Sequence record: OR896839.1
From: Salmonella phage S147_CPL00262
DNA: 38,265 nt
Direction: 5' to 3' (one strand)
Positions 1 through 9,237 of the stretch are shown here, piece after piece. Under the pieces are notes generated by a model. The model saw only the letters and a list, made by a program, of their open reading frames with translations, ran no database searches and was not told the DNA's origin. The position numbers were made by a program, and so were the translations under genes. Positions within the stretch are counted from its first letter, which is position 1. Every line of letters begins with the position of its first letter.

Positions 1-1764
1 ATGAGCGACACCCAAGCAAACCGTAATGCGCTAATCATCGCGCAGCTTAAGGGTGACTTCGTGGCCTTCCTGTTCGTATTGTGGAAGGCTTTGGCTCTCC
101 CGCCGCCAACTAAGTGTCAGATTGATATGGCCCGGTGTCTGGCTAACGGAGACAACAAGAAGTTTATCCTACAGGCTTTCCGTGGTATCGGTAAGTCATT
201 CATCACCTGTGCGTTCGTTGTGTGGACGCTATGGCGTGACCCTCAGTTGAAGATACTGATTGTCTCTGCATCCAAAGAACGTGCGGACGCTAACTCCATC
301 TTCATCAAGAACATCATTGACCTGCTGCCATTCTTGGCTGAGTTAAAGCCTCGCCCCGGTCAGCGTGACTCTGTGATTAGTTTCGATGTTGGCCCTGCCA
401 AGCCTGACCACTCTCCGTCTGTGAAGTCGGTGGGCATCACTGGTCAGTTGACTGGTAGCCGTGCTGATATCATCATAGCGGATGACGTTGAGATTCCGTC
501 TAACTCCGCAACTCAAGGTGCCCGTGAGAAGCTGTGGACTCTGGTGCAGGAATTTGCTGCGCTTCTGAAACCACTGCCGACTTCTCGCGTTATCTACCTT
601 GGCACGCCTCAAACCGAAATGACCTTGTACAAGGAACTCGAAGATAACCGTGGGTACACCACAATCATCTGGCCTGCGCTCTATCCGCGTAGCCGTGAGG
701 AAGACTTGTACTATGGCGACCGTCTGGCCCCGATGCTCCGCGAAGAGTTCAACGATGGGTTCGAGATGCTCCAAGGTCAACCAACTGACCCCGTGCGCTT
801 CGATATGGAAGACCTGCGTGAGCGTGAGTTGGAATACGGCAAGGCTGGCTTCACTTTGCAGTTCATGCTCAACCCGAACCTGAGTGATGCCGAGAAGTAC
901 CCCTTACGCCTCCGTGACGCTATCGTGTGCGGTCTGGACTTCGAGAAAGCCCCAATGCATTACCAGTGGCTTCCGAACCGTCAGAATCGCAATGAAGAGC
1001 TTCCTAACGTGGGACTTAAGGGTGATGATATTCATAGCTATCATTCGTGCAGCCAGAACACTGGACAGTACCAGCAACGCATCCTCGTGATTGACCCTAG
1101 TGGTCGCGGTAAGGATGAGACTGGTTACGCAGTGTTGTTCACCCTGAATGGCTACATCTATCTGATGGAAGCTGGCGGGTTCCGCGATGGTTATTCCGAT
1201 AAGACCCTTGAGTCCCTCGCTAAGAAAGCGAAGCAGTGGAAGGTTCAGACAGTGGTCTTCGAGAGTAACTTCGGGGATGGTATGTTTGGTAAGGTATTCA
1301 GCCCTGTGCTCCTGAAACACCATGCAGCGCAACTTGAAGAGATTCGTGCTCGTGGTATGAAGGAACTACGCATTTGTGATACGCTGGAGCCTGTACTCTC
1401 TACGCACCGCCTTGTGATTCGTGACGAGGTGATTCGTGAGGACTACCAGACTGCCCGTGACGCTGATGGTAAGCATGACGTTCGCTATTCGCTGTTCTAC
1501 CAGTTGACCCGCATGGCCCGTGAGAAGGGCGCTGTGGCACATGACGACCGACTTGATGCGTTAGCATTGGGTGTAGAGTTCTTACGCTCTACGATGGAAC
1601 TGGACGCCGTGAAGGTGGAAGCTGAGGTGCTTGAGGCGTTCTTAGAGGAACACATGGAGCACCCAATCCATTCGGCTGGTCACGTAGTCACCTCTATGGT
1701 TGACGGTATGGAACTCTATTGGGAGGATGACGATGTGAATAGCAACAGGTTCATTGACTGGTAG
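1..1764 (+). CDS. 19: Terminase large subunit (DNA maturase B), gene 19
   Basis: 587-aa ORF; N-terminus [31 protein letters not shown]... and overall length match T7/T3 gp19 as recalled; SD AAGGAG lies at the very end of the window (38251-38256) immediately upstream when the window is circularised. Confidence 0.95.
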
Positions 1765-1785
1765 TTATGCATATTGAGTGCATAA
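1765..1785 (+). other. Perfect 7-bp stem hairpin (TTATGCA / TGCATAA, 7-nt loop) directly after the gene 19 stop
   Basis: Inverted repeat read directly in the sequence; function unknown. Confidence 0.3.
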
Positions 1786-1845
1786 GGAATCATTGAGACC
1801 ACGGATGGTCACTTTAAGAAACTCCTTAAGAATCAATGAGTTTGA

Positions 1846-1868
1846 ATTAACCCTCACTAAAGGGAGAG
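1846..1868 (+). promoter_or_regulatory. T3-type phage RNA polymerase promoter (phiOR-equivalent)
   Basis: AATTAACCCTCACTAAAGGGAGA exact match to T3 RNAP promoter consensus. Confidence 0.85.
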
Positions 1869-2008
1869 AGGGGACTTAAAGCTACTATACAGGTTAGTCA
1901 TTCAGGTTATGCAATGACCCTTTATGCACTTTAAGTCCACCTCTATGATTGGTGATATTATCATTGTATAATCACCCTACCTTAGAGCAACTGAAAGGAG
2001 GTGGCTCA

Positions 2009-2158
2009 ATGTTACGCTTGCTGATTGCCCTGCTGCGTCATAGAGTCACTTGGCGATTTCTTCTGGTACTTACTGCTGCCCTTGGGTACGCAGGTCTTAC
2101 TGACCACCTCGGTCAACTGGAAGTGGCCTTTTGCTCTATACTCTCTTGTGGGGATTAA
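2009..2158 (+). CDS. 19.5: gp19.5-like small protein
   Basis: 49-aa ORF MLRLLIALLRHRVTWRFLLVL... preceded by SD AAAGGAGG; same length and similar sequence to T7 gp19.5 as recalled. Confidence 0.7.
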   Translation: MLRLLIALLRHRVTWRFLLVLTAALGYAGLTDHLGQLEVAFCSILSCGD

Positions 2159-2240
2159 ATTATTGTTGATGACCGACAAGCGGCTCTGAGGGATTCGTAG
2201 GTATAGTTTCACTACACCAACTCATCCCTGTAGAGTCAAC

Positions 2241-2714
2241 CCTAAAGGTTATACCTAAAGATGCCCTGTAGTTCGTAATGGTCTTACAGGGTCTTCTGGT
2301 GTCTCCTAGCTATCCCTTCGGGATGCGCCTATGGTCTCACCTATGGTGTGGCCTTACCTAAAGTGGTTGCCTAAAGAGACCCTTTAAGAATTTACCACAA
2401 AAATCTGAATGGGTATCTCACAGTTCAAGAACCCAAAGTACCCCCCATAGCCCTCCTAAAGCCACCTAAAGCCAGCCCTACCCCTAGGGTTTAACCTTCG
2501 GTTAACCTTGAGTATCTCCTCAAGTGGCCTATAGGATAGCCTAAAGTGTTGCCTAAAGTCAATACCTAAAGTGGTGGGTGGCTTAAAGAGGCCTTAAAGA
2601 GTGTCCTAGTGTACCAGTTCGATAGTACATCTCTATGTGTCCCTATCTGTTAGCCTCATAAAGTAAACCCTAAAGCCGCCACCTAAAGACCAGACCTAAA
2701 GCCATCACCTAAAG
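2241..2714. repeat. Irregularly spaced CCTAAAG heptamer array typical of T7-group genome ends (concatemer junction region)
   Basis: At least 14 copies of CCTAAAG (plus CTTAAAG variants) between 2241 and 2714; non-coding. Confidence 0.8.
2416..2646 (+). other. Putative mature genome left end and single copy of the terminal repeat
   Basis: TCTCACAGTT... at 2416 resembles the T7/T3 left-end sequence (recalled); no adjacent second copy in the window, consistent with a circularised assembly or concatemer junction; the right boundary is a guess. Confidence 0.35.
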
Positions 2715-2797
2715 AGCAACACTATCTTAAAGACAACCAGACCGATAGACCCACTGTTAACCTGTAGTGATGCCCTGTAGTTCTCTGTAGTCATTTC

Positions 2798-2820
2798 ATT
2801 AACCCTCACTAAAGGGAATA
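2798..2820 (+). promoter_or_regulatory. T3-type phage RNA polymerase promoter (phiOL-equivalent)
   Basis: ATTAACCCTCACTAAAGGGAATA. Confidence 0.75.
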
Positions 2821-2870
2821 AGGGATACTTAAAGGGTAATTAAAGATTTAATAAAAGATTAAATTAATGG

Positions 2871-2900
2871 TTGACTTTAAGTTACCTTTAAGGCTATTAT
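2871..2900 (+). promoter_or_regulatory. Host sigma70 early promoter (A1-equivalent)
   Basis: -35 TTGACT at 2871-2876, 18-bp spacer, -10 TATTAT at 2895-2900. Confidence 0.6.
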
Positions 2901-3001
2901 TCATCACGTCAACGGGACAACGGCCTTAAAGCCACTCCCTGAGATACCGGAGTCAACCGGATAAGTAGACAGCCTGATAAGTCATACGAAAAAAACAGGC
3001 A

Positions 3002-3030
3002 TTGACAACATGAAGTAAACGCAGTAAGAT
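3002..3030 (+). promoter_or_regulatory. Host sigma70 early promoter (A2-equivalent)
   Basis: -35 TTGACA at 3002-3007, 17-bp spacer, -10 TAAGAT; closely resembles T7 A2 as recalled. Confidence 0.7.
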
Positions 3031-3112
3031 GTATCACATAGCGTCAACCAACCGATTCGGTGTCTTCTAGGTGACTTAAGCGCACCACGGCACATAAAGC
3101 GAAACAAAATGG

Positions 3113-3141
3113 TTGACAACATGAAGTAAGCACGGTACGAT
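3113..3141 (+). promoter_or_regulatory. Host sigma70 early promoter (A3-equivalent)
   Basis: -35 TTGACA at 3113-3118, 17-bp spacer, -10 TACGAT; closely resembles T7 A3 as recalled. Confidence 0.7.
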
Positions 3142-3266
3142 GTACCACGAAATGACGGAACAGTGAGGCGGGACACTGAAAGCCGCTAGGGTCTAACGAA
3201 ACAAGACCGACACGCTCTTTAACAATCTGGATAATAGCTCTTGAGTGTACCGATGTATAAGCGAAT

Positions 3267-3305
3267 AACTCAAGGTCGCACTGAAAGCGTGGCCTTTATG
3301 ATATT
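3267..3305 (+). promoter_or_regulatory. Putative RNase III processing hairpin (R0.3-equivalent)
   Basis: Conserved motif ACTCAAGGTCGCACTG...TGGCCTTTATGAT that recurs upstream of several genes in this window. Confidence 0.55.
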
Positions 3306-3338
3306 CACTTAACACGAACTAACATGAGGTAACACCAA

Positions 3339-3797
3339 ATGATTTTCACTAAAGAGCCTGCTAACGTCTTCTATGTACTGGTGTCAGCTTTCCGTTCTAA
3401 CCTCGACGATGAGGTGAACATGAGCCGCCACCGCCACATGGTAAGCACTTTACGTGCCGCACCGGGTCTTTATGGCTCCGTTGAGTCAACCGATTTGACC
3501 GGGTGTTATCGTGAGGCAATCTCAAGCGCACCGACTGAGGAAAAAACGGTTCGTGTACGCTGCAAGGACAAGGCGCAGGCGCTCAATGTTGCACGCTTAG
3601 CTTGCAATGAGTGGGAGCAAGATTGCGTACTGGTATACAAATCACAGACTCACACGGCTGGTCTGGTGTACGCTAAAGGTATCGACGGGTATAAGGCTGA
3701 ACGTCTGCCGGGTAGCTTCCAAGAGGTGCCCAAAGGCGCACCGCTGCAAGGCTGCTTTACGATTGATGAGTTCGGTCGTCGCTGGCAAGTACAGTAA
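3339..3797 (+). CDS. 0.3: S-adenosyl-L-methionine lyase (SAMase; anti-restriction), gene 0.3
   Basis: 152-aa ORF as first early gene after the A promoters; sequence and length match T3 SAMase as recalled. Confidence 0.85.
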   Translation: MIFTKEPANVFYVLVSAFRSNLDDEVNMSRHRHMVSTLRAAPGLYGSVESTDLTGCYREAISSAPTEEKTVRVRCKDKAQALNVARLACNEWEQDCVLVYKSQTHTAGLVYAKGIDGYKAERLPGSFQEVPKGAPLQGCFTIDEFGRRWQVQ

Positions 3798-3803
3798 GTG
3801 ATA

Positions 3804-3845
3804 GACTCAAGGTCGCACTGTATGTGTGGCCTTTATGATTATCAC
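3804..3845 (+). promoter_or_regulatory. Putative RNase III processing hairpin
   Basis: Second copy of the ACTCAAGGTCGCACTG...TGGCCTTTATGATTATCAC motif. Confidence 0.5.
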
Positions 3846-3869
3846 TTAGCACGCTATAGGACTAACACC

Positions 3870-4070
3870 ATGAGTAAACTTCTGGCAACCTCTAAAATCA
3901 AAGGCCAATGCACTGTAACGCTGCGCGAGTATTACCACGGGTCAATGGGATGCACCTACGTTGTGCGCTACGGCAAACAGGTCACACATTGGGTAAACCC
4001 GATTTTAGCACAAGAGGAGTATCAAGCCTGTGTGACACACCAAGCCACGTGTGCAGGTTGGAATGATTGA
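3870..4070 (+). CDS. Hypothetical early protein (67 aa, Cys-containing)
   Basis: ORF starting at the internal ATG at 3870, directly after the RNase III-like hairpin; no recognisable function. Confidence 0.5.
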   Translation: MSKLLATSKIKGQCTVTLREYYHGSMGCTYVVRYGKQVTHWVNPILAQEEYQACVTHQATCAGWND

Positions 4071-4089
4071 CATTACAGGAGAGCATGAT

Positions 4090-4170
4090 ATGTTCGAGAA
4101 GGTTGTGAACTGGTCTATCGGGCCGATTATCATCTTAATCATTATGAACAACTTAGGGTATTTCTCATGA
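4090..4170 (+). CDS. Hypothetical small hydrophobic early protein (26 aa)
   Basis: MFEKVVNWSIGPIIILIIMNNLGYFS; SD AGGAGA 8 nt upstream; stop overlaps the next ORF start (ATGATG). Confidence 0.4.
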   Translation: MFEKVVNWSIGPIIILIIMNNLGYFS

Positions 4171-4364
4171 TGGCAGCACTAATCGCACTGGTCTATCTGT
4201 GCATCGCTATGTACTTTATGCGAGACTTTAAGCGCGGTCTGGCAATACACAAGGCAACGCTGAGTTACTTTAAGTGGGGATTCATCCCACGGTTTACGGT
4301 TCGTGAACGCAACGGACGCTTTAAGGCCAACAAGGTAGGAGTATTCTACATTGCTACGCACTAA
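4167..4364 (+). CDS. Hypothetical early protein (65 aa, N-terminal hydrophobic segment)
   Basis: ORF translationally coupled to the preceding small ORF; predicted membrane helix MMAALIALVYLCIAMYF. Confidence 0.45.
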   Translation: MMAALIALVYLCIAMYFMRDFKRGLAIHKATLSYFKWGFIPRFTVRERNGRFKANKVGVFYIATH

Positions 4365-4535
4365 CTCAAAGCACGTAAAGATTGCACTGTATGCTATGGC
4401 TTATGGTGCATCGAAACGCAAGGTCAAACGCATCTTAACGAGACACCGCAAGATGACCGCACGACAGGCTGCAAGCGCTGTCAAATGGGCTGAATTTACT
4501 CTTTACTCTTCTTACAGATAACAGGACACTGAACG

Positions 4536-5645
4536 ATGACTTTCACCGAAGCACAAGCCGCACTCGAAGCTATCCGCAACCTACCGATTGACCGATTGGA
4601 TGAACGCCAGCCCATGCTGGTGGCTCTTGCGGCTGCTATCGTGAACGCTGAGACTCAAGACGGGCAACTGACGCAGGCAGCAGGAAACACAGCGCTAGAA
4701 CGCATGGACTACTGGCAGACACTGGCTGAGCGTATGCGTGATGTTGGATTTGTACGCTTGGGCAACGGTCACTTTAGCGCAGCATACGAGCACGCATTGT
4801 TACCGGGCAAGGTTATCAAGGTAGGCTTTAAGAAAGAGGATTCAGGCGCTGCCTATGCTGCATTCTGCCGTATGAATCAGGGTCGTGAGGGTATACCTAC
4901 GGTGTACGACATTCAGCGTCATGCTGGTTGTTACACGGTGGTTCTTGATTATCTGAATCCGCTTAACGATTGGTGCTACGGTGAAAGCGATAAGATTCGC
5001 CACCACTTCCGCGCTGCACGGGAAATCATTGAGGAGGATTGCTTCGACATCGCCGAAGAGTACCCAATAAGTGACGGGTTCATTGAGACCTGCAAGGATA
5101 TCCGCAAGTTCTTCTTAGGTATCGCATCGTTCGACTGTCACAGCGGGAACATGATGAAAGACCAGATGGGACGCCTGATTATCACAGACCCGGTATCATT
5201 CAGCGCAGACGACAAGTTAAAGCCGGGTGAGTTCCACTGTGACCCGGATGAACTAATCGCTGAGATTGAGGCGCTGAGAGCGCAGGAAGCGATTGACCGC
5301 TGTAAGGCACGCAAGGCACGCCGTGACCCTAACGGAACCTTTCAGGCAGCACGTAAAGCACGCATCAAATGGCGCAGAAAGGCCTCTAAGCGTGCTAAAC
5401 GTGACGCTAAGGTACTAGCTAGGATGCGCATGGACGCCAATCAGAATCGCAGGGATGAGCCTAGGGCGCGTATGGTGTGGGGCGATAAGCACTGGCGCAA
5501 CGCTTGGATGCACCACAATAACCTAAACTTTGCAGAACTGGAGCGCCGCGCTGCTGCGGCAATGATGATGCACGACGAGGTGCGCATTCAGTGGGGCAAA
5601 CCGTTACACATAGACGCATACCTTGACAAGCGTCTACAAGGCTGA
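4536..5645 (+). CDS. 0.7: Serine/threonine protein kinase / host transcription shutoff, gene 0.7
   Basis: 369-aa ORF in the position of T7/T3 gene 0.7 immediately upstream of the RNA polymerase gene. Confidence 0.8.
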   Translation: MTFTEAQAALEAIRNLPIDRLDERQPMLVALAAAIVNAETQDGQLTQAAGNTALERMDYWQTLAERMRDVGFVRLGNGHFSAAYEHALLPGKVIKVGFKKEDSGAAYAAFCRMNQGREGIPTVYDIQRHAGCYTVVLDYLNPLNDWCYGESDKIRHHFRAAREIIEEDCFDIAEEYPISDGFIETCKDIRKFFLGIASFDCHSGNMMKDQMGRLIITDPVSFSADDKLKPGEFHCDPDELIAEIEALRAQEAIDRCKARKARRDPNGTFQAARKARIKWRRKASKRAKRDAKVLARMRMDANQNRRDEPRARMVWGDKHWRNAWMHHNNLNFAELERRAAAAMMMHDEVRIQWGKPLHIDAYLDKRLQG

Positions 5646-5715
5646 TAGAGTCTTATCTTACAGGTCATCAATCGGTGGCCTGAATAGGTACGATTTATTC
5701 ACAATGAGGTAAGCA

Positions 5716-8370
5716 ATGAACATCATCGAAAACATCGAAAAGAATGACTTCTCCGAAATCGAACTGGCTGCTATCCCGTTCAACACACTGGCAGACCACT
5801 ACGGCAGCGCATTGGCTCGTGAACAACTGGCTTTAGAGCACGAGTCTTATGAGCTAGGCGAGCGCCGCTTCCTCAAGATGCTTGAGCGTCAAGCGAAAGC
5901 TGGTGAGATTGCAGACAACGCAGCCGCTAAGCCGTTACTCGCTACGCTTCTCCCTAAGTTAACCACACGCATCGTTGAGTGGCTCGAAGAGTACGCCTCG
6001 AAGAAAGGCCGCAAGCCAGTAGCCTATGCGCCACTCCAGTTACTCAAGCCGGAGGCGTCCGCGTTTATCACACTCAAGGTCATCCTTGCGTCACTGACCA
6101 GCACGAACATGACAACCATTCAGGCCGCTGCTGGTATGCTGGGGAAGGCCATTGAGGATGAGGCACGTTTCGGGCGAATCCGTGACCTCGAAGCGAAGCA
6201 CTTCAAGAAGCACGTTGAGGAACAACTCAACAAGCGCCACGGGCAAGTCTACAAGAAAGCCTTTATGCAGGTGGTTGAGGCAGACATGATTGGTCGCGGG
6301 CTGCTGGGAGGAGAGGCGTGGTCTAGCTGGGACAAGGAAACCACGATGCACGTAGGGATTCGCCTGATTGAAATGCTGATTGAATCCACGGGTCTGGTGG
6401 AATTACAGCGCCATAACGCAGGCAACGCAGGCTCTGACCATGAGGCACTGCAACTGGCCCAAGAGTACGTCGATGTGTTAGCGAAGCGTGCAGGAGCACT
6501 GGCTGGCATCTCTCCGATGTTCCAACCGTGTGTCGTACCGCCGAAACCTTGGGTATCAATCACAGGTGGCGGCTACTGGGCGAACGGTCGCAGACCTTTG
6601 GCGCTCATTCGCACTCACTCTAAGAAGGGACTGATGCGTTATGAGGATGTTTACATGCCAGAAGTTTACGAGGCGGTCAACATCGCACAGAACACCGCAT
6701 GGAAAATCAACAAGAAAGTCCTCGCGGTTGTCAACGAGATTGTGAACTGGAAGAACTGCCCGGTCGCAGACATTCCATCTCTGGAGCGCCAAGAGTTACC
6801 GCCTAAGCCGGACGACATTGACACCAACGAGGCAGCACTCAAGGAGTGGAAGAAAGCCGCCGCTGGTATCTACCGCTTGGACAAGGCACGAGTGTCTCGC
6901 CGTATCAGCTTAGAGTTCATGCTGGAGCAGGCCAACAAGTTTGCAAACAAGAAAGCAATCTGGTTCCCTTACAACATGGACTGGCGCGGTCGTGTGTATG
7001 CTGTGCCGATGTTCAACCCGCAAGGCAACGACATGACGAAAGGTCTACTGACCCTCGCTAAAGGAAAGCCAATCGGTGAGGAAGGTTTCTACTGGCTGAA
7101 AATCCACGGCGCGAACTGTGCGGGTGTCGATAAGGTTCCTTTCCCTGAGCGCATCGCGTTCATTGAGAAGCACGTAGACGACATTCTGGCTTGCGCTAAA
7201 GACCCAATCAATAACACTTGGTGGGCCGAGCAGGATTCACCTTTCTGTTTCCTCGCGTTCTGCTTCGAGTATGCAGGCGTTGCGCACCACGGTCTGAGCT
7301 ACAATTGCTCTCTGCCGCTGGCGTTCGACGGGTCTTGCTCTGGTATCCAGCACTTCTCCGCGATGCTCCGCGATGAGGTAGGCGGTCGTGCGGTTAACCT
7401 GCTGCCAAGCGAAACCGTGCAGGACATTTACGGCATCGTTGCACAGAAAGTAAACGAGATTCTCAAACAGGATGCAATCAACGGCACACCTAACGAGATG
7501 ATTACCGTTACCGATAAGGACACCGGGGAAATCTCTGAGAAGCTCAAGCTGGGAACCTCAACGCTGGCGCAACAGTGGCTGGCATATGGTGTAACCCGTA
7601 GCGTAACTAAACGTTCGGTCATGACGCTGGCTTACGGTTCCAAGGAGTTCGGCTTTCGTCAACAGGTACTGGACGACACCATTCAGCCTGCGATTGACAG
7701 CGGTAAGGGCTTGATGTTCACTCAACCGAACCAAGCGGCTGGATATATGGCTAAGCTGATTTGGGACGCGGTGAGCGTGACCGTAGTCGCAGCGGTTGAG
7801 GCGATGAACTGGCTCAAGTCTGCCGCTAAGCTGTTGGCTGCTGAGGTCAAGGACAAGAAGACCAAGGAGATTCTGCGCCACCGTTGCGCGGTTCACTGGA
7901 CTACGCCGGACGGCTTCCCGGTCTGGCAGGAATACCGCAAGCCACTCCAGAAGCGTCTCGATATGATTTTCTTAGGGCAATTCCGTCTGCAACCGACGAT
8001 TAATACCCTCAAGGATTCAGGCATTGACGCACACAAGCAGGAGTCTGGCATCGCGCCTAACTTTGTTCACTCACAGGATGGTAGCCACCTCCGCATGACA
8101 GTAGTTTATGCTCACGAGAAGTATGGCATTGAGTCCTTTGCGCTCATCCATGACAGCTTCGGGACTATCCCGGCAGACGCTGGTAAGCTGTTCAAAGCTG
8201 TACGTGAGACGATGGTTATCACCTACGAGAACAACGATGTGCTGGCAGACTTCTATGACCAGTTTGCAGACCAGCTACACGAGACCCAACTGGACAAGAT
8301 GCCTCCGCTTCCGAAGAAAGGGAACCTGAACCTGCAAGACATTCTCAAGTCTGACTTTGCCTTTGCATAA
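5716..8370 (+). CDS. 1: Single-subunit DNA-directed RNA polymerase, gene 1
   Basis: 884-aa ORF MNIIENIEKNDFSEIELAAIPFNTLADHYG...; length and sequence typical of T3/T7 RNAP; SD GAGG upstream. Confidence 0.97.
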   Translation: MNIIENIEKNDFSEIELAAIPFNTLADHYGSALAREQLALEHESYELGERRFLKMLERQAKAGEIADNAAAKPLLATLLPKLTTRIVEWLEEYASKKGRKPVAYAPLQLLKPEASAFITLKVILASLTSTNMTTIQAAAGMLGKAIEDEARFGRIRDLEAKHFKKHVEEQLNKRHGQVYKKAFMQVVEADMIGRGLLGGEAWSSWDKETTMHVGIRLIEMLIESTGLVELQRHNAGNAGSDHEALQLAQEYVDVLAKRAGALAGISPMFQPCVVPPKPWVSITGGGYWANGRRPLALIRTHSKKGLMRYEDVYMPEVYEAVNIAQNTAWKINKKVLAVVNEIVNWKNCPVADIPSLERQELPPKPDDIDTNEAALKEWKKAAAGIYRLDKARVSRRISLEFMLEQANKFANKKAIWFPYNMDWRGRVYAVPMFNPQGNDMTKGLLTLAKGKPIGEEGFYWLKIHGANCAGVDKVPFPERIAFIEKHVDDILACAKDPINNTWWAEQDSPFCFLAFCFEYAGVAHHGLSYNCSLPLAFDGSCSGIQHFSAMLRDEVGGRAVNLLPSETVQDIYGIVAQKVNEILKQDAINGTPNEMITVTDKDTGEISEKLKLGTSTLAQQWLAYGVTRSVTKRSVMTLAYGSKEFGFRQQVLDDTIQPAIDSGKGLMFTQPNQAAGYMAKLIWDAVSVTVVAAVEAMNWLKSAAKLLAAEVKDKKTKEILRHRCAVHWTTPDGFPVWQEYRKPLQKRLDMIFLGQFRLQPTINTLKDSGIDAHKQESGIAPNFVHSQDGSHLRMTVVYAHEKYGIESFALIHDSFGTIPADAGKLFKAVRETMVITYENNDVLADFYDQFADQLHETQLDKMPPLPKKGNLNLQDILKSDFAFA

Positions 8371-8382
8371 CAAACACTTAGC

Positions 8383-8404
8383 ATTAACCCTCACTAACGG
8401 GAGA
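8383..8404 (+). promoter_or_regulatory. T3-type phage RNAP promoter
   Basis: ATTAACCCTCACTAACGGGAGA. Confidence 0.8.
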
Positions 8405-8456
8405 CTACTTAAGGTCTCCCACTTTAAGACACTTTAGGTACTAAGAGATTAAATTT

Positions 8457-8729
8457 ATGATTAACATTAAGACTTTCTTTAAGAACATCTTTAAGTTAAA
8501 CCGCTTGACTTCCATTAAGTTCTACGCTTGGATGCCCGGTAGTGATGACCTCCGCAAGACTGAATTTAAGTTAGGCTTAGGGCCGTGCGGTAAGGTGGTC
8601 AAGAAGTTGGAATGTTACTCAACGTCCTCCGGGATGGTCATCTTCCAGACCACTGAGGACAACGAAACGAAATCCTTCTACTACCCGAAAGGTTCAACGT
8701 GTGGTCGTATCGAACGGACATACAGTTAA
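8457..8729 (+). CDS. Hypothetical protein (gene 1.05 position)
   Basis: 90-aa ORF between two phage promoters; AT-rich N-terminal coding region. Confidence 0.5.
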   Translation: MINIKTFFKNIFKLNRLTSIKFYAWMPGSDDLRKTEFKLGLGPCGKVVKKLECYSTSSGMVIFQTTEDNETKSFYYPKGSTCGRIERTYS

Positions 8730-8745
8730 CCCTCACTAACAGGAG
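8723..8745 (+). promoter_or_regulatory. T3-type phage RNAP promoter
   Basis: AGTTAACCCTCACTAACAGGAGA. Confidence 0.8.
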
Positions 8746-8748
8746 AGT

Positions 8749-8790
8749 TAAACTTAAGGTCATCACCAGCGGTGGCCTTTGTGATTAACT
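8749..8790 (+). promoter_or_regulatory. Putative RNase III processing hairpin (R1.1-equivalent)
   Basis: CTTAAGGTCATCACCAGCGGTGGCCTTTGTGATTAAC motif. Confidence 0.5.
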
Positions 8791-8821
8791 TTCAATACAC
8801 ATCAACATGAGGTAAGATACT

Positions 8822-8962
8822 ATGCGTACCAACTTTGAGAAATTTACCAAGCGCGATTCAGTGGTCAACGAGCATGGCGAACAGTGGCAAGAGCGCCGTG
8901 ACCGCATGAAGAAACGCCACAAGCAACAGCGCGGTAACTCACAGAAACGGGAGTGGAACTAA
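8822..8962 (+). CDS. 1.1: gp1.1-like small basic protein
   Basis: 46-aa ORF MRTNFEKFTKRDSVVNEHGEQWQERRDRMKKRHKQQRGNSQKREWN; resembles T7 gp1.1 as recalled. Confidence 0.7.
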   Translation: MRTNFEKFTKRDSVVNEHGEQWQERRDRMKKRHKQQRGNSQKREWN

Positions 8963-9237
8963 TGATGGGACGTATCTATAGCGGCAACCTGAACGATTAC
9001 AAAGATGCGGTAGCGCGTCTACAGGAAGACCATGACGTGACCGTGAAGGTGGAGTCATTCAGCTATGAAAACCCAGCGAAGATGTGCAGGTCATCCGGCG
9101 AGGTTCTCCGTGTGTTCACGCGCTCCGGGAATCTGGTGGCATCCAGAACCTTCGAGCATAGCGACAGTGATGTGCAAATCAACGCGCAGACTGCATGGCT
9201 CCGTAAGGTTCACAGCGATTTGAAACACTGGAAGTAA
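8962..9237 (+). CDS. 1.2: gp1.2-like inhibitor of host dGTP triphosphohydrolase
   Basis: ORF MMGRIYSGNL...SGNL...DLKHWK shares the pattern of T7 gp1.2 (recalled); start overlaps the 1.1 stop (TAATGATG). Confidence 0.7.
   Translation: MMGRIYSGNLNDYKDAVARLQEDHDVTVKVESFSYENPAKMCRSSGEVLRVFTRSGNLVASRTFEHSDSDVQINAQTAWLRKVHSDLKHWK

Follow-up and report, generated by a model that had tools for sequence, protein, structure and literature searches.

Genes and features between gene 0.3 and the kinase

The interval between gene 0.3 and the gene 0.7 kinase lies in a 38,265-nt phage sequence (the window) and is occupied by four small, tightly packed early genes, as read from the sequence: 0.45, a tiny membrane peptide, 0.6 and 0.65. 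The sequence is 100% identical to OR896841.1 (Klebsiella phage GlastosBack, Teetrevirus), a deposited record that annotates a CDS for each of the four ORFs. The gene order is matched by the annotations of T3, phiYeO3-12, phiSG-JL2, Patroon and LL2. Genes 0.45, 0.6 and 0.65 already carry names in T3, phiYeO3-12 or phiSG-JL2, and their presence here is an ordinary finding. All four products fall in existing PHROG families of unknown function. The features are as follows.

3339..3797, plus strand: gene 0.3 (SAM lyase), the upstream neighbour; a 152-aa ORF, the 0.3 product in the T3, phiYeO3-12 and OR896841.1 records
3795..3848, plus strand: predicted RNase III processing hairpin (R0.45 in phiYeO3-12 and phiSG-JL2; R0.5 in T3), from folding and alignment
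3870..4070, plus strand: gp0.45, 66 aa, with an SD-like AGGA at 3858-3861; phrog_6500, E = 2e-43
4090..4170, plus strand: ORF for a 26-aa hydrophobic peptide (MFEKVVNWSIGPIIILIIMNNLGYFS), with the SD AGGAG at 4077-4081; phrog_17444
4167..4364, plus strand: gp0.6 (= 0.6A), 65 aa, with a predicted N-terminal transmembrane helix and a basic C-terminal domain; phrog_2385, E = 8e-30
4337..4341, plus strand: SD-like AGGAG inside gene 0.6, 9 nt 5' of UUG 4351, seen in the sequence and marked in the Patroon and LL2 records as a ribosome binding site
4351..4521, plus strand: gp0.65, 56 aa from a probable UUG start, containing the 41-aa ORF 4396-4521; T3 homology and phrog_10380
4536..5645, plus strand: gene 0.7 protein kinase, the downstream neighbour; a 369-aa ORF, a serine-threonine kinase in the T3 and OR896841.1 records, with an SD-like AGGA at 4523-4526

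The general framing of an earlier sequence-only reading holds: the DNA is class I early sequence from a T3-group phage, and such regions house accessory genes for interaction with the host. That reading also called the small ORFs unassigned, a description that gives way to their homology with T3 early proteins: gp0.6 and gp0.65 are 94% and 96% identical to the products of T3 genes 0.6 and 0.65. Its statement that none of the products can be assigned holds for biochemical function and fails for gene identity, since three of the four ORFs are closely homologous to named T3, phiYeO3-12 or phiSG-JL2 genes. Searches of Pfam, NCBIfam, PADLOC and PDB sequences with all four products returned no matches, and a literature search found no functional work on gp0.45, T3-type gp0.6 or gp0.65.

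The stretch at 3795-3848 is a conserved RNase III processing hairpin with predicted cleavage. RNA folding gives a stem with an internal loop at -24.8 kcal/mol (z = -3.7), and the element can be aligned with the R-sites annotated in T3, phiYeO3-12 and phiSG-JL2 (R0.3, R0.45 and R0.5). This alignment shows no variation in the flanks ACTCAAGGTC ... GGCCTTTATGAT, and in the upper stem the changes are compensatory. In form the element matches T7-group RNase III sites: an intergenic hairpin of about 50 nt, an internal loop and these two flanks. Cleavage at the T3 sites flanking gene 0.3 was reportedly described by Hughes et al. in 1987. Coordinate 3798, which is the GTG of the longest open frame here, lies inside the hairpin.

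Gene 0.45 follows directly. Its product is 91-94% identical to gp0.45 of phiYeO3-12 and phiSG-JL2, with similarity over the full length, and it occupies the same position right after the RNase III site 3' of gene 0.3. The family, found in 156 phage records, has a nearly invariant M1, and the longer N-terminal extensions proposed by gene finders are not conserved. The Cys-bearing ORF reported after gene 0.3 exists, with 66 rather than 67 residues (ATG 3870 to 4070); its cysteine content is not a family feature as such, C54 alone being nearly invariant. An AlphaFold model (pLDDT 84) contains four strands and a C-terminal helix, which suggests a small soluble beta/alpha protein. Homology of gp0.45 with T7 gp0.4, or of the 26-aa peptide with T7 gp0.5, was rejected: tblastn with T7 0.4 and 0.5 gave no match in this region. 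Relatives that have both 0.4 and 0.45 carry them as two separate genes.

The 26-aa hydrophobic ORF with a strong SD, already recognized in the earlier reading, probably starts at ATG 4090, 8 nt downstream of AGGAG 4077-4081, and its stop overlaps the gene 0.6 start in an ATGA. It occurs in 25 phage records, where it is 91-97% identical and intact in every case. A fairly unlikely alternative is that this ORF is not a gene, or that it starts at ATG 4063 (35 aa), with 4071-4166 serving as a leader or spacer coupling 0.45 to 0.6. Several facts suit such a reading: the ORF is limited to those 25 records, all at least 91% identical; gene callers picked versions of 35-39 aa; and nothing fills the slot in T3 or phiYeO3-12. 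Only five substitutions separate the copies (four non-synonymous, one synonymous), too few for a selection test, and two of the four place Ser in the hydrophobic core. Against it stand the strong SD, the ATGA junction, the intact frame in 25 of 25 records and the composition of the region in relatives. In five of them the peptide ATG is preceded by the 3' half of a hairpin of RNase III type and then by the SD, so that the codons upstream of 4090 belong to the hairpin. An unrelated membrane protein of 52 aa sits behind the same leader, in the same slot, in Patroon and phiSG-JL2, and the analogous slot of T7, gene 0.5, likewise encodes a small hydrophobic protein. The hairpin in relatives and the shared leader before the 52-aa protein therefore favour ATG 4090 over ATG 4063.

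The gene 0.6 family comprises 117 protein clusters and is present in 572 phage records. The 65-aa ORF at 4167-4364 does have the hydrophobic N-terminus described earlier, with a maximum Kyte-Doolittle value over 17 residues of 2.36, at residue 2. Like the T3 gene 0.6/0.6A family, it combines this helix with the C-terminal pattern HKATLSYFKWGF.PRFTVRERNGRFKANKVG.FY.ATH; the last 40 residues hardly vary, and the pI of the C-domain is 11.4. The annotators of LL2 give a TMHMM prediction of N-out/C-in. Together these features suggest a single-pass inner-membrane protein of N-out/C-in topology, whose basic and almost invariant 47-residue domain would face the cytoplasm. The longest of the 117 clusters measures 74 aa. 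Homology with T7 0.6A was rejected, as hhalign aligned only 13 C-terminal columns with a probability of 5%.

Extent and coding evidence of gene 0.65

The region 4365-4535 was previously taken as a 172-bp gap holding only a 41-aa basic ORF. Gene 0.65 lies there: its frame is open from 4339, and UUG 4351 follows AGGAG 4337-4341. With this region coding and the spacers between genes no longer than 19 nt, the interval is packed. The first 14 nt of gene 0.65 lie within the end of gene 0.6, in the +1 frame. The T3 annotation of gene 0.65 specifies a "UUG start codon", and the Patroon and LL2 records begin the ORF at the equivalent UUG. The match to phrog_10380 (E = 1e-34) covers profile positions 1-55 of 55. 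The position is also that of T3 gene 0.65, overlapping the end of gene 0.6 and finishing just before gene 0.7, an arrangement common to all T3-like loci.

The coding signal is clear over most of the gene. For codons 16-50, pN/pS is 0.30, and the two other frames give 1.29 and 1.34; codons 6-15 give a weak frame contrast (0.46 vs 0.53 and 1.08). A non-coding role for 4365-4535, as a regulatory or structured RNA such as an RNase III site, leader or sRNA, is scarcely credible in the face of this signature, even though RNase III sites occur several times in T7-group early regions and the stretch was once perceived as a gap. Its RNA fold z-score is -0.24, no better than shuffles. The R-site consensus was not found in 4365-4535, and an Rfam search of 1-9000 gave no matches.

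The earlier reading was accurate in that 4396-4521 encodes the basic sequence it quoted, and short in its extent, since the product most probably has 56 aa from UUG 4351. That a 41-aa peptide is instead made from AUG 4396, with some 30 nt of untranslated spacer ahead of it, is very unlikely. AUG is the better start codon and the deposited record annotates 4396-4521. Yet no SD precedes 4396, whereas AGGAG precedes 4351, and M16, the residue encoded there, is an internal and invariant part of the MAYGA motif throughout the family. The 15 residues 5' of AUG 4396 (residues 2-15 are LRTNSKHVKIALYA) are conserved in protein, through synonymous and conservative changes, in relatives only 56-80% identical. 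In the family alignment two residues that precede M16 stand out, R3 as nearly invariant and A12 as invariant, and A12-L13 is retained between clades despite three synonymous changes. A start at AUG 4396 would also delete helix 1 of the AlphaFold model (pLDDT 87.7), which has helices at residues 6-17, 22-33 and 37-55.

Gene 0.65 is present in 175 phage records. Searched against 1.8 billion representatives, its profile recovered only 5 clusters, all from the same phage family and every one beginning M-[SL]-Q-[RH] at the equivalent upstream start; this search returned no fusions and no informative relatives. The 56-residue product is very basic (pI 11.4) and is predicted to be a three-helix bundle; its most likely role would be that of an adaptor that binds nucleic acid or protein.

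Separate initiation or frameshift at the end of gene 0.6

The curated records of phiYeO3-12 and phiSG-JL2 join the basic ORF to gene 0.6 by a putative +1 frameshift, and T7 has a "possible gene 0.6B". Under that reading the ORF would form the C-terminal extension of a fusion, 0.6B, produced by a +1 shift within 4339-4364, and the three-helix domain would be tethered to the membrane anchor. Both the +1 relationship and the ACG CAC TRA C that spans the stop of gene 0.6 have been kept from T3-like through to T7-like phages, and a stop followed by C is a weak termination context, as known from prfB-type sites. A start codon would be compatible with a minor fraction of ribosomes also shifting frame. 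The sequence-only reading had missed this long-standing annotation, together with the RNase III site and the full extent of the basic ORF.

The local sequence does not favour a shift. Positions 4339-4364 read GGA GUA UUC UAC AUU GCU ACG CAC UAA, and no slippery P-site codon able to re-pair in the +1 frame occurs there; in the 23-nt window, CAC to ACU and UUC to UCU mispair. The AGGAG is 20 nt away from the stop, unlike the stimulator of prfB, which is about 3 nt from its shift site, and its distance of 9 nt to UUG 4351 is the spacing of an initiation site. The downstream frame of a prfB-type site lacks an initiation codon of its own, and here one is present. The conserved ACGCACTRAC is accounted for by dual coding, as T-H-stop in gp0.6 and R-T-D/N in gp0.65. 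Natural in-frame fusions were found in none of the 117 gp0.6 clusters.

Comparison of about 65 non-redundant kinase-anchored loci points the same way. Two features go together: a start codon placed at -14 (ATG) or -11 (TTG) from the gene 0.6 stop, and a +1 ORF that runs for 40 codons or more (counts 50/4/1/10; Fisher p = 6e-8, a statistic that ignores shared ancestry among the loci). The start codon accompanies the long +1 ORF in 50 of 51 loci, the lone exception being the kinase ORF itself. It arises through a synonymous site of gp0.6, TAT vs TAC or ATT vs ATC. The same start serves at least seven unrelated types of downstream ORF, including the T7-type 0.6B extension and genes for endonuclease VII and Bro-N, which are unrelated, lie in the same frame and begin at the same codon.

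SD strength was tried as a discriminator and set aside. All relatives carry the SD-like stretch because it encodes the conserved K-V-G of gp0.6, and its presence with or without a downstream ORF means that it does not discriminate between the two models. Anti-SD duplex energies are alike in loci with and without the ORF (means of -7.2 vs -7.6 kcal/mol); only the start codon discriminates. A literature search found no work on 0.6B expression and no proteomic data.

The co-occurrence of start and ORF, the lack of a slippery site and the conserved helix-1 residues therefore argue for independent initiation, and translationally coupled initiation of gp0.65 at its own codon is the best reading of the sequence. 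Most probably gp0.65 is not a frameshift extension of gp0.6, and the 0.6B fusion is accordingly an improbable account of this locus. On this comparative evidence, an overlapping gene in its own right is a better reading of what T7-group records carry as the 0.6B frameshift.

A proposed early operon and its relatives

The most probable explanation as a whole is a class I early operon, cut by RNase III, with four small cistrons and gp0.65 translated separately. The interval would be the promoter-distal part of this operon, transcribed by host RNA polymerase; a scan for sigma-70-like promoters gave a count not above chance. Host RNase III would cut the primary transcript at 3795-3848, leaving an mRNA with closely spaced or overlapping cistrons for gp0.45, the 26-aa membrane peptide, gp0.6 and gp0.65, along with the kinase gene. 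Ribosomes may initiate at UUG 4351 through AGGAG 4337-4341, by re-initiation after the gene 0.6 stop 11 nt downstream, or by both routes. The four products would be dispensable accessory proteins acting on the host early in infection. Equivalent T7 genes were lost by spontaneous deletion during laboratory adaptation (PMC8923235).

T3 (NC_003298, T3p03/T3p04) has the same order of R-site, 0.6, 0.65 and 0.7, with the same 14-nt overlap, UUG start and AGGAG. Unlike the present phage, it lacks both the gp0.45 and the 26-aa peptide cassettes, and its gp0.65 is one residue shorter near the C-terminus. This interval had been called the least conserved part of the early region, which is apt for 0.45 and the peptide, cassettes that are present or absent (the peptide in just 25 records), and inapt for gp0.6 and gp0.65, which are highly conserved. 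In phiYeO3-12 and phiSG-JL2, R0.45 is the same hairpin, 0.6A corresponds to gp0.6 and the 0.6B extension to gp0.65. phiYeO3-12 differs in lacking the peptide cassette, and phiSG-JL2 in having the 52-aa membrane ORF, unannotated, in the peptide slot and a 14-aa duplication in 0.6A.

The likeness to T7 is mainly positional. T7 genes 0.4, 0.5 and 0.6A/0.6B also lie between gene 0.3 and the kinase and are dispensable, a small hydrophobic protein (gene 0.5) fills the middle slot, and a +1 ORF with an ATG at -14 overlaps the 0.6A stop. T7 gp0.4 is an FtsZ inhibitor, and T7 gp0.6 is a growth inhibitor that targets MreB. Unlike the present gp0.6, T7 0.6A has no membrane helix. Homology was not detected for 0.4 and 0.5 (tblastn) or for 0.6A/0.6B (profiles), save for the last ~13 residues of gp0.6/0.6A, and profile comparison of the T7 0.6B extension with gp0.65 gave no match.

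That shared 13-residue stretch coincides with a dual-coded start cassette proposed here. It is possible, if on balance doubtful, that the last ~36 nt of gene 0.6 form a portable element, made of the SD-like K-V-G codons and a +1 AUG or UUG, which is conserved from T7 to T3-like and KP32-like phages and onto which unrelated genes are grafted. These would range from gp0.65 variants and the T7 0.6B tail to small membrane peptides, a Bro-N gene and an endonuclease VII homing gene. The arrangement resembles coupled overlapping cistrons in having a start 11-14 nt before the gene 0.6 stop, an SD-like sequence within the upstream CDS and, at the peptide/0.6 junction, an ATGA overlap. It is unlike them in that one 36-nt gene end starts several unrelated genes, which makes it more modular than usual.

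The direct value of these findings is modest and lies partly in corrected annotation: gp0.65 should be given 56 aa from UUG 4351 rather than 41 aa, gp0.45 should be started at 3870, the peptide probably starts at 4090, and the RNase III site is absent from the deposited record. gp0.45, gp0.6 and gp0.65 count among the early proteins of therapeutic phages of Klebsiella, E. coli and Yersinia, and are reasonable, not exceptional, candidates for host-takeover or anti-defence screens. If the start cassette is real, the 0.6B frameshift, annotated for 40 years in T7 and its relatives, would be a misread overlapping gene, and the gp0.6 anchor and gp0.65 would form a co-translated two-protein module for host takeover or anti-defence.

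Gene content of the interval

Positions 3300-4700 match OR896841.1, the record of Klebsiella phage GlastosBack, a T3-like Teetrevirus, at 100% identity (window coordinate = record coordinate + 1), and 134 further phage records at 80-99%. Between the SAM lyase gene (0.3) and the kinase gene (0.7), the interval consists of the known T3-group genes 0.45, 0.6 and 0.65 and a small cassette ORF, all of which follow a known RNase III site. The sequence-only reading (unassigned ORFs and a gap) has for the most part been overtaken: its small ORFs are real, with several details altered, and those other than the cassette ORF bear T3-group names (0.45, 0.6, 0.65), yet are uncharacterised. All four products belong to PHROGs of unknown function, and OR896841.1 already annotates four "hypothetical protein" CDS here. 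Related phages are annotated in these orders (R, RNase III site):

T3: R0.5, gene 0.6, gene 0.65 ("UUG start codon"), gene 0.7
phiYeO3-12 and phiSG-JL2: R0.45, 0.45, 0.6A, "0.6B" (putative +1 frameshift product), 0.7
T7: 0.4, 0.5, 0.6A, "possible gene 0.6B", 0.7

The window carries the following:

3870-4070, plus strand, gp0.45, 66 aa
4090-4170, plus strand, 26-aa peptide ORF, with AGGAG 8 nt upstream and a stop overlapping the gene 0.6 start (ATGA)
4167-4364, plus strand, gp0.6

RNA folding places a hairpin with an internal loop at 3795-3848 (-24.8 kcal/mol, z = -3.7). It can be aligned to the RNase III sites annotated in T3, phiYeO3-12 and phiSG-JL2, with flanks that do not vary and compensatory changes in the upper stem. 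The interval as first delimited thus begins in a predicted RNA processing site rather than a gene. Its first ORF, described as 67 aa, does exist but starts at 3870 and encodes 66 aa; the start Met of gp0.45 hardly varies, and the N-terminal extensions that gene callers add lack conservation. CDS0008 of OR896841.1 (window 3822-4070) starts inside the hairpin, which looks wrong, the conserved start being 3870.

A small ORF cassette

Twenty-five phage records contain the 26-aa peptide, with identities of 91% or more. The codons ahead of the ATG 4090 equivalent make up, in five relatives, the 3' half of a further RNase III-type hairpin, after which comes a Shine-Dalgarno (SD) sequence, and Patroon and phiSG-JL2 carry the same leader ahead of an unrelated 52-aa membrane protein. 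This hairpin half and shared leader make ATG 4090, as originally proposed, the likely start; the start of CDS0009 in OR896841.1 (window 4063-4170) at 4063 looks wrong. Selection on the peptide is not demonstrable from five substitutions in all, four of them non-synonymous, and its status as a gene is plausible but unproven.

The extra hairpin is complete before the peptide cassette in five relatives (loci L088:1270-1335 and L089-L092), and window 4040-4090 retains only its 3' half, ATGATTGACATTACAGGAG, joined to the last gp0.45 codons. This partial hairpin, together with the shared leader that Patroon and phiSG-JL2 have before another ORF, suggests by sequence comparison that small early genes may be shuffled as "R-site + SD + ORF" cassettes, recombining at conserved R-site sequence. 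At the 0.45/peptide junction, a sigma-70-like match (4067-4094; TTGACA-16 nt-TATGTT, extended -10 TG, 10/12) is one of a regional count at chance (4 versus 2.9 expected).

Genes 0.6 and 0.65

gp0.6 has RDFKRG after its hydrophobic N-terminal helix, and its basic C-terminal domain (pI 11.4) hardly varies; the LL2 annotators report an N-out/C-in topology. The gene end (…GCA ACG CAC TRA) is conserved as far as T7, whose 0.6A shares this sequence but is otherwise unrelated to T3-type gene 0.6. In phiSG-JL2, gp0.6A (L003:2095-2334) contains an in-frame 14-aa tandem duplication in the conserved domain, with KRGLAIHKATLSYF present twice.

The 172-bp gap said to follow gene 0.6 is absent: the basic ORF frame is open from 4339, with a UUG at 4351, 9 nt after AGGAG (4337-4341), exactly as in T3 gene 0.65. 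Across 26 homologous protein clusters, M16 (AUG 4396) never varies and sits internally, as part of a MAYGA motif; upstream of it A12 is invariant and R3 nearly so. Among 16 distinct sequences from T3-like and KP32-like clades, pN/pS over codons 16-50 is 0.30 in the gp0.65 frame versus 1.29 and 1.34 for the alternative frames; ahead of M16, a stretch of only 10 codons, the frames separate less clearly (0.46 versus 0.53 and 1.08), but A12-L13 is nevertheless retained through three synonymous changes. Given the family alignment, AlphaFold2 predicts a three-helix bundle with confidence (pLDDT 87.7); its first helix spans residues 6-17, so that the predicted fold requires residues upstream of M16. 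When 1.8 billion representative proteins were searched exhaustively with the gp0.65 profile, just five clusters matched, each beginning M-[SL]-Q-[RH] from the upstream position. Upstream conservation, the predicted first helix and these cluster starts mark the 41-aa basic peptide proposed from AUG 4396 as a very probable truncation. CDS0011 of OR896841.1 (window 4396-4521) likewise appears truncated, its likely start being UUG 4351.

Kinase-anchored sampling yielded 80 IMG/VR loci, 66 with T3-type gene 0.6, and about 65 non-redundant gene 0.6 junctions were classified by whether a +1-frame ORF of 40 codons or more follows the stop. Where such an ORF exists, 50 of 51 loci carry a start codon, ATG at -14 or, for T3-likes, TTG at -11; in the sole exception the kinase ORF itself occupies that frame. 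Where the start codon is missing, 10 of 11 loci have only 3-28 open codons (Fisher p = 6e-8, treating loci as independent despite shared ancestry). The start codon arises at gp0.6-synonymous or conservative sites (TAT GTC versus TAC ATC; ATT versus ATC). At least seven unrelated kinds of downstream ORF share this start:

three gp0.65 variants
a T7-type 0.6B tail on T3-type gene 0.6 (L017)
a hydrophobic peptide
a 59-aa protein
an endonuclease VII gene (Pfam E = 2e-25; L023, L073, L091)
a Bro-N gene (L037, L040)

In some relatives the endonuclease VII gene, of homing type, or the Bro-N gene fills the gp0.65 slot, in frame with that ATG at -14 from the end of gene 0.6, and the annotated endonuclease VII of Teetrevirus "phage 31" begins there too. 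Because the T7-like contig L017 (1464-1834) joins a T3-type gene 0.6 to a T7-type tail, the halves of the annotated 0.6B fusion protein assort independently.

Three further points speak against a +1 frameshift (0.6B): the 23-nt window in which a shift would have to occur offers no codon able to re-pair in the +1 frame, AGGAG stands at initiation spacing from UUG rather than frameshift spacing from the gene 0.6 stop, and natural in-frame fusions occur in 0 of 117 gp0.6 clusters. The SD-like stretch does not tell the models apart: it codes for the conserved gp0.6 residues K-V-G and so occurs at all loci. On these comparisons, gp0.65 is best read as a separately initiated, translationally coupled cistron; a minor 0.6B frameshift product may also be made.

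Neighbouring annotation and possible roles

Four minus-strand "hypothetical protein" CDS of OR896841.1 (record 2012-2212, 2705-2794, 2909-3175 and 3192-3314) sit in the non-coding early promoter region, the last covering the R0.3 RNase III site, and are probably spurious gene calls (window 2012-3315). Gene 0.3 (window 3339-3797) is labelled "SAM-dependent methyltransferase" there and in many RefSeq-style records, a propagated misnomer, as the T3-type product is a SAM lyase (SAMase; PMC7877911).

Searches of Pfam, NCBIfam, PADLOC and PDB sequences gave no match for the interval products, nor did these show sequence homology to T7 gp0.4, gp0.5, gp0.6A or the 0.6B tail. Activities of this region in T7 include FtsZ and MreB inhibition, which are therefore not transferable to the interval products. 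T7's equivalents of these genes are non-essential, and laboratory adaptation leads to their loss (PMC8923235). In a working model, the interval products would serve as accessory proteins that interact with the host: gp0.6 would sit anchored in the membrane and display its basic domain to the cytoplasm, and gp0.65, produced in a coupled ratio, would act as a basic partner that binds nucleic acid or protein. Useful by-products are the annotation corrections and the comparative case against a "0.6B frameshift".
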